DNA of 64,000 bases from Leucoraja erinacea (Eukaryota). Within the stretch, counting starts at the first letter, position 1, and every line of letters starts with the position of its first letter. The stretch lies in the NCBI RefSeq assembly GCF_028641065.1, contig NC_073414.1:8246001-8310000 (forward strand), in the 5' to 3' direction. This document shows, piece after piece, positions 10,996 to 62,845 of this stretch. The notes beneath the pieces were generated by a model. It did no database searches and was not told the origin of the DNA. It worked only from the letters and a program-made list of their open reading frames with translations. The translations under genes and the position numbers were made by a program.

Positions 10996-12447
10996 TCTCG
11001 CGTAAGAAGGAACTGCAGATGCTGGTTTACACCGAAGATAGACACAAAATGCTGGAGTAACTCAGCGGGTCAGGCAGCATCTCTGGGGAAAAGGGATAAA
11101 GACATTTCAGATCAGGCGGAGTGTCAAGGAGGGGGACACTGGAGGTGTGGGAAGGTACAGGTACAGAGCAAAGCAGAGCCTGCATCGATGGCTCAGGAAA
11201 TGTGGAGCCCACAATGGTCCATTGTTGGCTGGTGGCAAGGTGATAGCGAATGAATACAAACGGTGCAATTAGCAAGTAGACTAGGGTGGGGGGAGGAGGA
11301 TGGAGAGAGGGAATGGAGGGCTTACTTGAAGTTGTGGTTCTAGACCTGACCATGAAGGCCCGTTGCCATGACGACGTTGCAGGGTGGGCCTGGCCAAGCC
11401 TAGCCGTGGTGTCCTCTGCCGCGTGCGGTCCACGTGCTCGGCTTCTTGGAGCAGCGTCCGGGTCCAGCAGATCCCCAGGCTGCTGCAGGGCTTCCAGCAG
11501 CCCACTCCCCCGGTGGGTTTCTGTGGGGCCCAGCTCTGTGGTGGGCGAGCCGGAAATCTGTGTTCATGTGAGCTGGCCAAGCGAAATACCAGGCACACTT
11601 TCCTGCCTTACCTGTCTTCCTCTGTTCAGTTCTACAGAGGGACCCCTGTGTTGGCGTACAACATCACTCCTTCCTTCAACAGCACCGCACATGGGTCGGA
11701 AAGATCGGATTAACCCCCCCCAGCGCTCTGGCAATCGGACTGAAGAACAAGGTTCAAGTGATTTCCAGAGGCTAAGCTCTCTCCCCCACCCTCCCACTGG
11801 TGGTTTGAGTAGCTGAGGATCGAGGATACCGCTGGATTGGAGTTTTACCGTTGGTGTAGGCTTAAGAGGTTCCGTAGGCCAAGGTAAAGGGCAGCCATCT
11901 TGGGGGGAGTAGCAATCCCCGCTCATTAACACTGCCTTACACACACTAAGGAACAACGATCACATTTACACCATGCCAATTCGGCCCTTCGGCCCAACTC
12001 TGCCCATGCTGACCCAAATGTCCCATCCAAGCTAGGCCAACCATTTGGCCCATATCACACTAAACCTTTCCTATCCATTATCTATCTTTTAAATGGTAAT
12101 CAGTGACTTTTAATTTGTACCTGTCTCAAATACCTCCTTTGGCAGCTCGTTCCATACACCCACCACCCTCTGAGTGAAATATTTGCCCTTTAGGGGCCTT
12201 TTAAATCTTTTCTCCCCCCTCCTCACCTACTAGTCCACTGGTTATTGATCACCCTATTCAGGGTAAGAGACCCTATCTATCCCCCTCATGATTTTGAGCA
12301 TCTCCGCTAGATCACCCCTCAGCCTCCTGCTGTCCAAGGAATAAGGTCCTTGGCTGGCCAACTTGCCCCTCTAGTTCGGGCCCTTGAGTCCTGGCAACAT
12401 CAGAGGGGGGAGGATGGGGTTTCAGCGGCTTTAGTTGGAGAGGGGGG

Positions 12448-13984
12448 ATGGATATGATGTTGTCAGGCCCCCAGGTCTATGGTGCCAGCTGCCTGCTCTC
12501 TGGCACTGGGGACTTGGTGACCAGGCTGCCCCCCGCCAGGAGCTGCTGCTGGGGACGGGGTGCATTGGGCCCGGCTGAGGACGGGGCCCGGCAGCTGGGG
12601 CCGAGCCAGGAGGCGGTGGGGCCCACCGGCCGTGAGAGGGTGCAGCAAGGTGGCGAGGCAGCACCCGGAGAGGGAGCTCCGGCCGGCGAGGACGCAGAGG
12701 GCGAGTCCTGTCACGGAGCTGGTCTCCTCGCAGAGCTAGAGGGTGGCTCCTGCCATGGAGCAGGTCCCACTGTGGAGGTGGAGGGTTGGCCCTGTCATGG
12801 AGTTTGTCCCCTCGCTGAGCTGGATGATGGGTCCTGTCATGGAGCTGGTCCCCCCCTGGAGGCAGAGGGTGGGTCCTGTCATGGAGGTGGTCCTCCTGTG
12901 GAGCTAGAGGGTGTGCCCTATCATGGAGATAGCCAGGAGAATGGACCCATTGATGGAGCTGGCCTGATAGTGGAGAAGGGGAGGGGGCCCCCTGATGGAG
13001 CTGACCCCAGTTTGGAGGCGGTTGATGGGCCCTACCGTGGAGCCAGCGGGGAAACTGGTGGCCCCCCTCATGGAGCAGGCCACACCGTGGAGTTACAGTG
13101 TAGGCCCTGTCACGGAGCTGGCCAGCTGGGAGGCCCACGGGACTGTGGTGATGGCGATGGCAAAGATGGTGCCTTTACAGAGGAGATGGAACTCCAGCGG
13201 CGAGAGTGTGCCCGTCGGAGAACCCAGGCGGGCAAAGAGAGCGCGGCGGAAATGAGAGGCGTGTTGAAAACCCATCGCCATGTATCCCGGGAGCTCTCTG
13301 GTCCCATCTCTGTGGCTCCCACAAGGCCGGTAACCATGACGATGGACGCCATTGATGGTCAGGCCTATGGATCCTGGGAGTTCTCCGGTTCCACCTCAGT
13401 TGCTGCCAAAAGCCCAGTAACCACAGCGGTGGGGGCCATGGAGGATCGGGCCTATGTATGCTGTTCCACCTCAGCTGCTCCAAAAGGCCCAGTAACCACG
13501 GCGATGGGTGCCATGGAGGATCGGGCCTATGGATCCTGTTCCACCTCAGCTGCTCCAAAAGGCCCAGTAACCACGGCGATGGGCACCATGGAGGATCGGG
13601 CCTATGTATCCTGTTCCACCTCAACTGCTCTAAAAGGCCCAGTAACCACAGCGATGGGGGCCATGGAGGATCGGGCCTATGGATCCAGGGAGTTCTCCGG
13701 TCCGACCTCAGTTGCTCCCACAAGCCCAGTAACCACGACGACGGCCCCCGGGCCTGACATCGGGCTCCGGGAGGACCAGAGGCCCGAGGAAACGGACGAT
13801 GACTTTGGGACGTTCGAGCAGGCGGGGAACCTGGTGGTGTGGGCCGCGGAGGCGGGGCCCGTGTGGCTGGAGGACGAGGATGGGATCGGCGGCTGCGGGA
13901 ACCAGGAGGACAAGGCGCAAGACGGAACGTGGGCACCGTGGCCTGAGGAACTTGCAGAAACTGTACAGCACGGAGCAAGTCACG
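12448..13984 (+). CDS. Aftiphilin/CLBA1-family gene, coding exon 1 (start codon provisional)
   Basis: 512-codon GC-rich open frame. ATG in strong context (gggATGG). Acidic 'DDDFGTF' adaptor-ear-type motif and WAPW. Donor CACG|GTAAAC in phase 1 matches the next exon. Confidence 0.75.
12697..13123 (+). repeat. Coding 42-bp (14-aa) tandem repeat, EGxSCHGAGPxxEL
   Basis: About 10 progressively degenerate copies within exon 1. Confidence 0.85.
13288..13740 (+). repeat. Coding 75-bp (25-aa) tandem repeat, STSAAPKGPVTTAMGAMEDRAYGSC
   Basis: About 5-6 copies; the central ones are nearly identical at DNA level. Confidence 0.9.
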
Positions 13985-14099
13985 GTAAACAGGGGAATCA
14001 ACATTGGAGAGGTGGGGGGGGGGGATAGAACATAAAACAGTACCGCACAGGGAACTTCGGCCCACTATGTTCAGTTTAGTTTATGATTGTCATGTGTGT

Positions 14100-30400: not shown

Positions 30401-30485
30401 CGGTTGACGCGGCTTGTCGTCAGAATGGGTTAGGAGTTGAGAGCGGCGTCAGTGGGTGGGATCCGGAGGCGGGGAAGAAGCAGCA

Positions 30486-30803
30486 ATGGTGGTGAAACAT
30501 GTAGTGGACGCCAAGCAGCTCCAGCACCTGTTCAGCCAGACCGAGAACCTGGTGGCGGTCATGTACTCTGCCGAGTGGTGCAACAACTGCCGCATGATCC
30601 GCCCGCACTTCTACAACCTGGCCGAGCAGATGCCCAACGTGACCTTCGTGGAGGTGGACGTGGACGACGCCGAGCCGCTGGCCCGCTCGGCCGGCATCAC
30701 CTGCATGCCCACCTTCCACTTCTTCAAGCGCTCCACCAAGATGGGCGAGTTCTCGGGGACCAAGAGGGACAAGCTGGAACATCTGATCGATGAGCTGCAG
30801 TGA
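30486..30803 (+). CDS. Intronless thioredoxin-like protein 1 (105 aa, WCNNC)
   Basis: Colinear with vertebrate cytosolic TXN over its full length (W-CxxC..I.P.F..L....NV.F.EVDVDD...CMPTF.FFK...K.GEFSG..K.KLE..I.EL). Kozak gcaATGG. Intact stop. AATAAA at 30924. Confidence 0.9.
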   Translation: MVVKHVVDAKQLQHLFSQTENLVAVMYSAEWCNNCRMIRPHFYNLAEQMPNVTFVEVDVDDAEPLARSAGITCMPTFHFFKRSTKMGEFSGTKRDKLEHLIDELQ

Positions 30804-30989
30804 GCGGCCTGTTAAAACACTTGGGAGGGTTTTGGGTGGGGGGGTGGGGTGGGGGAGTGAAAAACAAAGAAAGGAAAAAAGAATTAAACTGAGGTTTGTC
30901 TGCCTTGTGTAGAAAAGCCCCAGAATAAATAAACCCACAACTAAAAGAATTGCAACCCGTGAAGGTCTTCTTCAGGCAAAATATCTTGA

Positions 30990-40962: not shown

Positions 40963-42168
40963 GGATTATAGATATTCCAGGTTTTTGTCGCTGTAATTCT
41001 TTGCCCCGGTTCTATTCTGAGCCTGGATTGTGCCCGTAAAACAATGCCAATGCAAGTTTCCACAAAGGTGGTAGAGCTGCTGCCTCACGTTCGCCAGGGA
41101 CCCGGGTTCGATCCTGACCACGGGCGCTGTGTCTGTGTGGAGTTTGCACGTTCTCCCCGTGACCTGCGCGGGTTTTCTCCGGGTGCCCCTGTTTCCTCCC
41201 ACACTCCATAAGGCCGACAGGTTAATTGACTTGGGTAAAATTGTCAATTGTCCCTAGTGTGTGTAGGGTAGTGTTACGAACATTCTGCTAGTTTGAAGGG
41301 AGGGGGAAACTCGGGAGAATTCGTGAAAAACCTCGGGAAAGTGGGACAGGCCCTTCGGCGTGGGCCGAAGAGCCTGTTTCTGCGCTGTATCTAAAATCAA
41401 ATCATTTCTTTGTACCTACTTTCCAGACGTCCCTCCTTGGTCTAAACTTGTTTTTATTTGGGTCCTCCCATTCTCTCCACCAACAAAGTCCCTCGGCTGC
41501 CGAGGACGTTTCAGACGTTTGAGAGACCAGATAGACAGGATCAAATATCTTACTCCGCTCTAAGATCTTCGGACAGGATGTTTTTCGCTCCTTGCTGGAT
41601 CTTTCAGGCTCTGAACCGCTCCCTTCCCCTCCCGAGAGTGGGTGGCCCGCTCCGAGGAGAGGTTGGTGTGGGTGTAGGTGGAGGAAGGAACCGCAGAGGC
41701 TGGGTTAAACCGAAGGTAGATATTGCTAAAAGCTGGAGTAACTCAGCGGGACAGGCAGAGAAGGAATGGATCCACCAATGGGTCCACTCAGCCCGAAACG
41801 TTGCCCATTTCCTTCGCTCCATAGATGCTGCTGCACCCGCTGAGCTTCTCCAGCTTTTTTGTGTACCTTCGATTTTCCAGCATCTGCAGTTCCTTCTTGA
41901 GCACCAATTCCTTCTCTCCAGAGATGCTGCCTGTCTCGCTGACTGGGTTACTCCAGCTTTTAGCAGTGTCTATAGGTTCTTTGGTGTGTGTCTATGTTCG
42001 GGTGAGGTTCAACGTGTGTAATTCGTTCTGTTGATACCAGAGGTGGTGATGTACAAGAGTTGGACTTGGTTTGCAATGACGGCCCTGGACGTCACTATCG
42101 GCTAGAGGTTGCACCAGGGGGCAGCCCGGGGACGTGGACATTGCACAAAGTGTTACCATCGCGGCAGG

Positions 42169-42489
42169 ATGGTGTTGAGACCCATCAGGACCAGGCGGCA
42201 GCTCGCCACGCTGCTGGAGGAGGAAGAGGAGTCCCTGGTGGTGGTCTTCTTCGGGGCCAAATGGTGCAACAACTGCGCTAGCATCAAACCCTACTTCAAG
42301 ATGAAATCCGACCAGAACCGCGACGTCATCTTCGCCGAGGTGGACGTGGATGAGTCGGAGGATTTGGCCAGGGCTGTGGGCATCACCTGCATGCCCACCT
42401 TCCACTTCTATAGATGCCAGGAGAAGGCTGGAGAGTTCTCTGGGACCAAGAGGGAGAAATTGGACCGCCTGATAGCGCAGTTGAAATAA
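42169..42489 (+). CDS. Intronless thioredoxin-like protein 2 (106 aa, WCNNC)
   Basis: Full TXN-fold sequence 'LVVVFFGAKWCNNCASIKPYF...VIFAEVDVDESEDLARAVGITCMPTFHFY...GEFSGTKREKL'. ATG in aggATGG. ATTAAA at 42518. Confidence 0.9.
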   Translation: MVLRPIRTRRQLATLLEEEEESLVVVFFGAKWCNNCASIKPYFKMKSDQNRDVIFAEVDVDESEDLARAVGITCMPTFHFYRCQEKAGEFSGTKREKLDRLIAQLK

Positions 42490-55811: not shown

Positions 55812-56492
55812 TTGGGCCTGAGGGTGACGTCACAGGGGCGGCAAGGGGGCCTGTGCGTGACGTCACAAGGGGGCAAGTGGGCCTGCGCGTGATGTCACAG
55901 GGGGGCAAGAGGGCCTGCGGGTGATGTCACAGGGGGGCAGACGGGAGGGAAGTGGGGCCTGAGCGTGATGTCACAGGGGGGCAAGAGGGCCTGAGCGTGA
56001 TGAAGAGGGCCACGTCACAGGGGGCAAGAGGGCCTGTGCGTGACGTCACAAGGGGGCAAGAGGGCCTGCGCGTGATGTCACAGGGGGCAGACGGGAGGGA
56101 AGTGGGGCCTGAGCGTGATGTCACAAGGGGGCAAGAGGGCCTGAGCGTGATGTCACAAGGGGGCAAGAGGGCCTGAGCGTGATGTCACAGGGGGGCAAGA
56201 GGGCCTGCGCGTGACCTCACAAGGGGGCGGGCCGGAGGGAAGTGGGCCTGCGCCTGACGTCACAAGGGGGCGGGCCGGAGGGGAGTGGGCCTGCGCGTGA
56301 CGTCACAAGGGGGCGGGCCGGAGGGAAGTGGGCCTGCGCGTGACGTCACAACAAGGGGGCGGGCCGGAGGGAAGTGGGGCCTGAGCGTGACGTCGCGGGG
56401 AACGGGCGGGGCGGAAATGTCCATGCGCCTGACGTCACAAAGGGCGTGGCGGCGGAAGCGGGGCCTGCGCACGACGTCACAAGGGGGCCTGG
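55812..56492 (+). repeat. GC-rich minisatellite (~31-45 bp units, core gggcctg(a/c)gcgtga(c/t)gtcaca(a)ggggg) forming the upstream region of thioredoxin-like gene 3
   Basis: About 17-18 tandem units; 7 perfect TGACGTCA and ~7 TGATGTCA. Proximal units add GGGGCGG and GGAAGT. Confidence 0.9.
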
Positions 56493-56549
56493 TTGGGCCG
56501 GGCCGGGCAGCACCGGCGGGGCGGAAGTGATCCGGACCGAGCCGAGCAC

Positions 56550-57164
56550 ATGGCGGGGGCGGGCAGCACGCTGGGCAAGCCCAAGAAGGGGCAGGGCAAG
56601 AGTGCGGAGAAGATCGCCACACAGAAGGGGCCGGCGGGCACGGCGGGAACGGCGTCGTCGACAGTGGCGGCAGCCGCGTCCCGCTCTCCCGACGCCGGCA
56701 CTTCCCGCGGCAAAGCGGGCAAAGCTCCTCCTCCGCCCAAGGCCGAGTCGCTGCCGGCCACCAAGAGCGACGAGGCGGCCAAGGCCCCGAAGGCGGCGGA
56801 GAAGACGGCGCCAGAGCCGGTGGCCAAGGCAGGGGAGGGGGTGCCGCTGAGGAAGATCAGCAGCAAGACTCAGCTGGACAAGTTCATCAAGGACGCGGGC
56901 GAGAAGCTGGTGGTCATCTTCTTCTCGGGCACCTGGTGCGAGACGTGTCAGAGCCTCAAGCCATACATGAGGGAGATGGCCCAGGTGAACACCAACGTCG
57001 TCTTCTTCTGTGAGGTGAACGTGGACGATTCGGAGGACACGGCAGAGGCTTGCGACATCGTGCACATCCCCACCTTCCAGTTCTACAAACAGGGGAAGAA
57101 AATAGCCGAGGTGCAGGATGACAACAAGGCATCGGTAGAGGACAAAATCAAGGAATTGAAGTAG
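56550..57164 (+). CDS. Intronless thioredoxin-domain protein 3 (204 aa; Lys/Ala/Pro-rich N-terminal tail, WCETC)
   Basis: C-terminal ~105 aa is colinear with TXN ('KISSKTQLDKFIKDAGEKLVVIFFSGTWCETC..LKPY..EVNVDD..CDIVHIPTFQFYKQGKKI'). Lies in a CpG-rich region. AATAAA at 57435. Confidence 0.9.
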   Translation: MAGAGSTLGKPKKGQGKSAEKIATQKGPAGTAGTASSTVAAAASRSPDAGTSRGKAGKAPPPPKAESLPATKSDEAAKAPKAAEKTAPEPVAKAGEGVPLRKISSKTQLDKFIKDAGEKLVVIFFSGTWCETCQSLKPYMREMAQVNTNVVFFCEVNVDDSEDTAEACDIVHIPTFQFYKQGKKIAEVQDDNKASVEDKIKELK

Positions 57165-62171: not shown

Positions 62172-62329
62172 CTAGGACTGGTAGGTGCCGGAAACGCAGA
62201 CAAATTTCCCGTCGTACTCTGAGGTAGTCAGGCACTTGAGGAAGAAGTGGCCCAGGTCGTGTTTGGAGATGACTCGGCCTCCCCTTTCACCGACTGCCAC
62301 GGCGTAGTTCTCCGTCAGCGGCAACGCAT
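62172..62329 (-). CDS. BLVRB: Biliverdin reductase B / flavin reductase (NADPH), last coding exon
   Basis: On the minus strand, acceptor ctctattcctctgacAG is followed (phase 1) by [55 protein letters not shown]. This matches the BLVRB C-terminus ([19 protein letters not shown]). Candidate AATAAA on the minus strand at 61414-61419. Confidence 0.92.
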
Positions 62330-62845
62330 CTGTCAGAGGAATAGAGTCACGTTAAATAAACCACAGCGCAGAAGTACTCATTTTTATTCTCTGGCTTTCA
62401 ACACTGGCTGAGACATTGCTCCTGTTTTTAGTGCTTTTAATGTCTTTTAATTTTTACTGTTTTATAGTACTTTGTTTTACGGTTTTTAATGGTTGTAATA
62501 ACTTCTTGTCCATCCATGAGTTCTCATGTACAGCACTTTGTGGCAACTGCAGTTGTTTAAAGTGCTTTATAAATAAAGTTATTATTATTATTATTATGTA
62601 GTAAATGCGAATAAGGAGCACATAAATAGGATCGTCAGGATGTTGGAAACATAGAAAAATAGGTGCCGGGGTAGGCCATTCGGCCCTTTGGGCCAGCACC
62701 ACCATTCGAGATGATCATGGCTGATCATCCAATATCAGTACCCCGTTCCTGCTTTGGTGTTGCACAGAAAGCATCCTATTGGCAAAGGAAGACAAAGTGC
62801 TGGAGTAACTCGGGGTCAGGCAAGCAGCTCTGGAGAACATGGATA

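Follow-up and report, generated by a model that had tools for sequence, protein, structure and literature searches.

Nearly all cytosolic thioredoxins carry Asp26 and the WCGPC active site, and the work considered here on what these features do relies on engineered mutants. Asp26 activates Cys35, and its replacement by Ile (D26I) in one engineered ancestral thioredoxin lowered insulin reduction by 72%, leaving about 28% of the activity, and raised the Tm by 10 °C; a single surface Lys (A39K) restored the activity of this mutant (PMC9601870). Loss of Asp26 therefore does not abolish reductase activity, and the D26I result together with its rescue predicts slower rather than inactive enzymes. 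Swaps of the dipeptide between the two active-site cysteines move the redox potential only in part (PMC2665069, which also treats the role of the residue before the cis-Pro), and the rheostat model, in which the CxxC dipeptide alone sets the potential, is disputed (PMC4395160), so that the direction of a redox shift is unreadable from the dipeptide. Mutations of K36, D58/60/61, Q63 or K94 in human Trx1 lower the efficiency of TrxR1 (PMC8189816). Atypical thioredoxins are common across life (PMC2757866). Mammals possess sperm-specific thioredoxins, which are tied to the building of the tail and the acrosome (PMC4492044, PMC11276731) and are found in association with the fibrous sheath of the tail or with the acrosome as it develops (PMC4492044, PMC11276731, PMC3667087).

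The window, meaning the whole stretch of 64,000 nucleotides of Leucoraja erinacea DNA analysed here, contains three intronless thioredoxin paralogs (Table 1), each a single open frame with a GC3 of 0.83-0.92 and a match to Pfam PF00085 (E 1e-21 to 2e-18). A search of the skate's own genome places a fourth gene 40 kb past gene 3, and the four score 62-77 bits against this profile, for which the cut-off is 23.5. The gene set of the first-pass annotation of the window was correct for its three genes, but it overlooked the fourth and the germline context described below.

Table 1. Thioredoxin genes of the cluster and associated features. Positions refer to the window, except for gene 4, which lies beyond it.
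Feature	Position	Strand	Description
Paired half-CRE TGACG-N8-CGTCA before gene 1	30405..30422	+	81 bases ahead of the ATG
Gene 1	30486..30803	+	Intronless 105-aa thioredoxin paralog; Met26, WCNNC, TCMPTF
WCNNC active site of gene 1	30576..30590	+	Read from the window translation
Paired half-CRE TGACG-N8-CGTCA before gene 2	42077..42094	+	92 bases ahead of the ATG
Gene 2	42169..42489	+	Intronless 106-aa paralog; FFGAKWCNNC, Phe26, TCMPTF; sister group of gene 1
GC-rich tandem array upstream of gene 3	55813..56488	+	Periods of 32-43 bp; 7 full CRE octamers (TGACGTCA)
Gene 3	56550..57164	+	Intronless 204-aa paralog; FFSGTWCETC, Phe26, HIPTF, Asp at Gly91
Last coding exon of the flavin reductase (BLVRB-like) gene between genes 3 and 4	62172..62351	-	RNA control; upstream exon matches PF13460
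Gene 4	G000:C38:8342699-8343067 (L003:1453-1821)	-	Intronless, 122 aa; WCEFC, Leu26, WFPTF, without Pro40

The window translation reads MYSAEWCNNC at 30561-30590 (+). Gene 1 aligns with human Trx (PDB 1auc) without gaps over residues 15-104 (E 1.6e-27), and its Met26 therefore occupies the position of Asp26. From the letters alone, the first pass had read the active sites as WCNNC in genes 1 and 2 and WCETC in gene 3, with Met, Phe and Phe respectively at the Asp26 position and with the Trp, both catalytic cysteines and the cis-Pro retained. The translations bear out the motifs, and the alignments agree on the residues at position 26 and on Trp31, both Cys and Pro75 in genes 1-3, the last as regards position and not cis geometry. 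According to its AlphaFold model (mean pLDDT 92.2), gene 1 adopts the standard Trx fold, which superposes on human Trx1 (PDB 3m9j) with a TM score of 0.97 and an rmsd of 0.7 Å (Foldseek). In gene 3, the Trx domain is predicted to be folded from about residue 100 onwards, behind an Ala/Lys/Gly/Pro-rich N-terminal tail of about 97 aa with a net charge of +8, modelled at low confidence and hence predicted to be disordered. Because AlphaFold folds gene 1 and the gene 3 domain, failure to fold, which had been put forward as a refutation of unusual redox chemistry, appears unlikely. The tail of gene 3 begins with a conserved MAGAGS(T)LGKPKK-type start. The Amblyraja gene-3 model (P0016) carries a 45-aa N-terminal extension that falls at 56418-56549 and is out of frame in the skate window; this type of extension is missing from the other eight gene-3 orthologs aligned, and the true start of gene 3 is probably MAGAGS.

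Orthologs of these genes are found in sharks and rays, and the chimaera has a single protein of gene 1/2 type (WCANC, Phe26). Gene 1 shares 97% identity with an Amblyraja radiata (skate) protein and 66% with the chimaera protein, skate-catshark identities for genes 1-4 are 84, 74, 80 and 68%, and the gene 4 orthologs of sharks and rays are 67-97% identical. The catshark Scyliorhinus torazame carries the four orthologs under consecutive gene numbers (scyTo_0016843-46), and the contig bearing each of them is 102,270 bases long. Across the alignment, whose rows include near-duplicates, all 33 cluster rows carry M, F or L at position 26 and lack Pro34, and W31, C32, C35 and P75 are invariant among them. 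The dipeptide is fixed by paralog: N34 in 14/14 rows of gene 1, gene 2 and the chimaera protein, ET in all 11 of gene 3 and EF in all eight of gene 4. The seven gene-1 rows show N, S, G or T at position 33 and the chimaera shows A, which makes WCxNC rather than WCNNC the conserved motif. The same 14 rows that share N34 also keep Cys73, which is missing from genes 3 and 4, where Cys69 is kept instead. By comparison, Asp26 is retained in 11/11 vertebrate-type TXN rows, in both TXN copies of the skate's own genome and in seven of eight TXNDC2-like rows. One of the sperm thioredoxins, a primate TXNDC2 (P0152), has lost Asp26 independently: its active site is still WCGPC, but Val takes the place of the Asp. 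As judged from the alignments, the pattern in the cluster fits purifying selection on the altered active sites.

No protein of this type from outside cartilaginous fishes emerged among the matches inspected, so that the genes may, but need not, be missing from bony vertebrates. Word-based homolog searches, in which 12 of 13, nine of 19 and seven of seven candidates passed (the window's own protein included), gave named matches solely from sharks, rays and chimaera; in a profile search, the cluster motifs occurred only in shark proteins among the 40 single-domain or short matches from the best 150 of 51,666, the majority of these 150 being multi-domain; and the ESM Atlas returned generic thioredoxin clusters only. 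The possibility that these are processed pseudogenes drifting from TXN, with odd motifs as signs of decay, draws on their intronless state, on an identity to mammalian TXN of only 37-46% (46% for gene 1) and on the lack of coding reads for gene 1. Intact frames, skate-shark identities of 68-84%, paralog-fixed motifs, a promoter element that genes 1 and 2 have in common and a gene-3 ortholog detected as protein run against this idea, which we regard as almost certainly wrong; the intact frames, conserved orthologs and detected protein likewise rule out an artefact.

The cluster is not the only source of thioredoxin in this genome. A Pfam search (47 matches among 72 scored candidates) located two canonical WCGPC/Asp26 genes on contig C3, so the housekeeping role is covered outside the cluster. 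Their introns fall between residues 43/44, 63/64 and 85/86, none of which occurs in the cluster genes, and the intronless cluster therefore points to retroposition followed by tandem duplication. The two canonical genes stand in tandem (G000:C3:38665002-38680600 and 38722274-38726074; L042-L043, L045) and show identities to mammalian TXN of only 45% and 53% across 97 positions; in copy A, which has a long branch in the tree, Cys69 and Cys73 are missing. The multi-exon gene between genes 3 and 4 is one that we take to be BLVRB-like, and a SERTA-domain gene comes next after gene 4. At human 19q13.2, BLVRB and SERTAD genes are presumably adjacent, with no thioredoxin in between. Elsewhere in the window, a 546-codon open frame at 12388-14028 (+) with short repeats, a DDDFGTF...WAA motif and no Pfam match presumably resembles an aftiphilin/CLBA1-type clathrin-adaptor-binding protein. 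Upstream of the window (L012-L015, G000:C38:8206001-8246000) lie exons that we take to be like those of a peptidase-S28-type serine protease and of the leucine-rich-repeat protein DMAC2/ATP5SL; two stretches of them were scanned and gave no Pfam match.

In the phylogenetic tree, genes 2, 3 and 4 form one clade each (support 100/99-100) and the chimaera protein joins genes 1 and 2 (99/93), and the gene 1/2 lineage is on this account older than the split between sharks and chimaeras. This split took place about 400 million years ago. The backbone of the careful tree leaves the deep branching without resolution, including a single origin of the four genes and the relation to TXNDC2. Quick AU tests, which left out fifteen rows including the long-branch outgroups and skate TXN copy A, rejected none of the arrangements compared, namely the cluster alone (p 0.63), gene 3 with TXNDC2 (0.50), the cluster with TXNDC2 (0.57) and TXNDC2 with mammalian TXN (0.63). 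The differences between genes 1 and 2 by codon position (0.34/0.30/0.42) are uninformative.

With regard to chemistry, the skate genes carry Arg or Lys at position 39 (human numbering). At the positions contacting TrxR1, gene 1 has R36, D58, D60, D61, E63 and R94; gene 2 has A36 (A/S in orthologs) and has lost the charge there; gene 3 has Q36 and N58; and gene 4 has Q36 and N60, the changes in genes 3 and 4 amounting to K36Q plus D58N or D60N/G. Away from these positions, gene 3 has Asp at Gly91 and gene 4 is without Pro40 in eight of eight rows. The contact residues therefore describe a gradient in which gene 1 is the most TXN-like, and the suggestion of the first pass that these proteins might be non-substrates of TrxR is doubtful for gene 1 and more plausible for genes 3 and 4. 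Its proposal of oxidases or isomerases finds little support in the residues concerned. The residue preceding Pro75 is Met, Ile or Phe in the cluster rather than one of the oxidase type. The cluster also lacks the buried Glu that PDI-type oxidases carry at the Asp26 position (PMC3961690). The more general statement that these are not standard reductases finds backing in the fixed motifs, in the presence of canonical TXN elsewhere and in the 72% loss caused by D26I (PMC9601870). On these grounds, the four genes are probably not standard housekeeping reductases.

The loss of Pro34 also bears on metal binding. Genes 1 and 2 might encode Trx-fold proteins that bind Fe-S (or Zn), for instance as homodimers bridged by a cluster through Cys32 and Cys73, and act as redox or iron sensors. 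A human Trx1 with a CSYC site, in which Pro34 is lost and the cis-Pro kept, bound Fe-S in a manner for which Cys32 and Cys73 mattered, and natural atypical thioredoxins such as IsTRP (NCFAC), PDI-A (WCKHC) and Arabidopsis TRXo bind clusters (PMC6210436); the 14 rows with N34 (genes 1, 2 and chimaera), all without Pro34 and with Cys73, show a permissive pattern of this kind. The cis-Pro has, however, been proposed to exclude metal from CxxC thiols (PMC2757866) and Pro75 is present in all 33 rows; moreover, Cys73 is simply inherited from TXN and is absent from genes 3 and 4. Metal binding by genes 1 and 2 is a minor possibility.

The upstream regions of the genes contain CRE-type elements. The paired half-CRE of Table 1 has just two copies in 174 kb, one each before genes 1 and 2, and eight of the ten full CRE octamers in the same 174 kb lie before genes 3 and 4. 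Genes 1-4 have, respectively, 3, 2, 4 and 4 half-sites within 200 bp of the ATG, counts that were matched in 11, 168, 0 and 2 of 2000 shuffles, that of gene 2 by itself not being significant; among control CpG-rich windows, nine of 134 had at least two half-sites. CREM controls spermatid genes, and CRE sites are also used by CREB/ATF in somatic cells. The array at 55813-56488 lies in a CpG island immediately 5' of gene 3 and represents an unusually repeat-amplified candidate promoter.

Transcription was followed in RNA runs. In four of four runs from as many studies (tissue of origin not given; 1.1-1.9 Gb read per run), the coding bins of gene 1 (30484-30791) had zero depth. The last exon of the BLVRB-like gene was covered at about 16x in two of them, X12 and X16, by reads that match the window save at one site; because the control-exon reads differ at a single site, these two runs hold the skate species or a very close one and count as validated, X10 and X19 being without organism confirmation. 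At position 62220 of this exon, all X12 and X16 reads have G where the window has T, which may reflect allelic variation, divergence between species or a mistake in the assembly. A few reads at 30792-30901, which match only in part and over a G-rich tract, were disregarded as evidence for gene 1. A look-up of sequencing runs listed no RNA run carrying gene 1, which counts neither for nor against its expression. For gene 3, run X16 gave sense reads at 0.4-1.4x over the coding region and 3.7x right past the stop, and X12 gave 0-0.09x across the coding region. A run of a related species (X9) had 1.4-3.1x at the 3' part of gene 3, with the control exon without depth and the strand unreadable; contigs of a relative (X1), which share a small part of the gene 1 words and were compared with gene 3 only, showed nothing there. 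Given the low reads in X16, gene 3 may not be strictly germline.

Protein evidence comes from catshark semen. The S. torazame ortholog of gene 3 is UniProt A0A401PZS9, which a semen proteome study lists in its Table S2 among the proteins of spermatozoa and not on the sheet for seminal plasma; its mean signal in the aquarium group is 481,624, with about 20 of 233 inspected rows higher (PMC11083954). In the main text of that paper this protein is not highlighted, and the thioredoxin discussed there has a different accession. In the same study, the sperm pellet received a single wash and the peptide matching ran across species. No ortholog of gene 1, 2 or 4 turned up on the sheets for sperm or seminal plasma, as far as these were available, under the prefixes A0A401PZ, A0A401SL, A0A401SM and A0A4W3GY, and thioredoxin is not named in the main text of a catshark testis proteome (PMC13052469). 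Support from the sperm proteome covers one of the four genes, and presence in sperm does not amount to sperm specificity.

These data bear on whether the four proteins are instead ordinary TrxR-coupled reductases, with a somewhat lower turnover compensated by surface charge, that are expressed in a small number of somatic tissues or respond to cAMP or stress via CRE. The A39K rescue of D26I (PMC9601870) alongside the Arg/Lys39 of the skate genes is in keeping with this, as are the positive residues 36 and 94 and D58/D60/D61 of gene 1 at positions where mutation lowers TrxR1 efficiency (PMC8189816), the near-identity of its model to human Trx and the low gene 3 sense reads in a sample without tissue label. 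Such enzymes would not be expected to retain four different non-GP dipeptides across sharks and rays despite the presence of canonical TXN, and the lack of K36 and of D58 or D60 in genes 3 and 4, the lack of Gly91 in gene 3, the silence of gene 1 in the two validated RNA runs and the finding of the gene-3 ortholog in sperm (PMC11083954) speak against them as well. We consider this explanation unlikely.

The explanation we favour, which we hold to be evenly poised between right and wrong, is that the cluster consists of four intact intronless Trx paralogs of the male germline that carry out slow, target-dedicated thiol-disulfide exchange, like mammalian Sptrx/TXNDC2, and do not serve as general reductases. 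A TXN mRNA would have been retroposed in an early cartilaginous fish and then duplicated in tandem beside BLVRB. Within a normal Trx fold, Cys32 would still attack target thiols or disulfides; a buried hydrophobic residue in place of Asp26 would leave Cys35 less deprotonated, lowering turnover and prolonging the life of mixed disulfides, and would also make the fold more stable. The paralog-specific dipeptides (xN, ET, EF) and altered surfaces may tune each protein to its own partners, for which disulfide-cross-linked sperm structures are candidates, and the basic disordered tail of gene 3 may serve as an anchor, as is thought for the extension of mammalian Sptrx-1/TXNDC2. Gene 1 is probably still fed by TrxR, and genes 3 and 4 probably poorly so. 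We infer that all four genes are expressed in the germline.

The joint loss of Asp26 and Pro34, both of which are catalytic helpers, could also mean that the proteins are redox-silent and have a structural or adaptor role, with the CxxC as a fixed disulfide or as a cross-link made once with structures of the sperm or cytoskeleton. The basic low-complexity tail of gene 3 with its conserved start, its lost Gly91 and the loss of Pro40 in all rows of gene 4 would suit such a role. Trp31, both cysteines and Pro75 are nonetheless invariant in 33 of 33 rows, as retained chemistry predicts, and a redox-silent role is very unlikely. Returning to catalytically active sperm thioredoxins, a bolder version would have cartilaginous fishes possess their own set of four, derived from one TXN retrocopy independently of mammalian Sptrx and going beyond the mammalian ones in the loss of both Asp26 and Pro34 from a Trx1 scaffold, with a different chemistry, either as cytosolic catalysts of disulfide formation or shuffling or, for genes 1 and 2, as Cys32/Cys73 Fe-S dimers, that cross-links sperm structures; this is put forward tentatively and is on balance doubtful. 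In the literature searched, where most subscription papers were out of reach, neither the cluster nor its motifs were found to be described, and databases name the proteins merely 'thioredoxin-like' or 'TXNDC2-like'.

From the perspective of thioredoxin function, the locus supplies four natural Trx1-derived proteins that have been without Asp26 and WCGPC for the whole of shark and ray evolution, the dipeptide being fixed separately in each, and lets the encoding of redox potential, TrxR recognition and metal exclusion be tested directly. If the reading as four sperm thioredoxins is true, these are natural experiments on the purpose of the GP dipeptide and of Asp26 that have run since the shark-chimaera split. 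Should the proteins be enzymes of the germline, sperm-specific thioredoxins either arose at least twice in jawed vertebrates or far predate mammals, either origin bearing on the evolution of disulfide-cross-linked sperm structures in internally fertilising lineages, and the proteins could be tried as sperm markers in the breeding of elasmobranchs. Should they be merely slightly slower reductases, the value is chiefly one of annotation.

Compared with known systems, the cluster shares with vertebrate TXN/Trx1 the fold, the length (105 aa in gene 1), W31, C32, C35 and P75; genes 1 and 2 further have Cys73 in common with it, and genes 3 and 4 have Cys69. The cluster differs in the absence of the GP dipeptide, Asp26 and introns, in its location on a different chromosome and, for gene 1, in going undetected in RNA runs that show the neighbouring control gene; the classical WCGPC is replaced by WCNNC, WCNNC, WCETC and WCEFC in genes 1-4, respectively. 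PDI/DsbA oxidases and isomerases have in common with it a CxxC Trx fold and a non-GP dipeptide, but the cluster lacks the CxHC motif (no His34), has a hydrophobic residue at position 26 in place of the buried Glu six residues before Cys32 and, by inspection of genes 1-3, has N-termini without a signal peptide. The Fe-S atypical thioredoxins (Echinococcus IsTRP, plant PDI-A, TRXo and human Trx1-CSYC) resemble it in combining a non-GP CxxC with a single Trx domain, and Cys73 is available in genes 1 and 2; they belong to other lineages and have other motifs, and the likeness of genes 1 and 2 to them lies in permissive features of the sequence.

Finally, Sptrx-1/TXNDC2 and Sptrx-3/TXNDC8 are TXN-derived paralogs linked to sperm, as the cluster proteins probably are, and Sptrx-1 reportedly has oxidizing activity. 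The layout of gene 3, alone among the four, is that of TXNDC2, with a low-complexity N-terminal extension and a C-terminal Trx domain; several orthologs are named 'TXNDC2-like' by NCBI, and the change of Q63 to E and the loss of K72 seen in TXNDC2-like rows recur in the cluster. In contrast, seven of the eight TXNDC2-like rows keep Asp26, and human TXNDC2 and TXNDC8 keep CGPC according to Table 1 of PMC6928294, while gene 3 has CETC in 11/11 rows. The likeness to TXNDC2 may be one of convergence, and it is to the mammalian sperm thioredoxins that the cluster proteins are likely to be most similar in the way they work.
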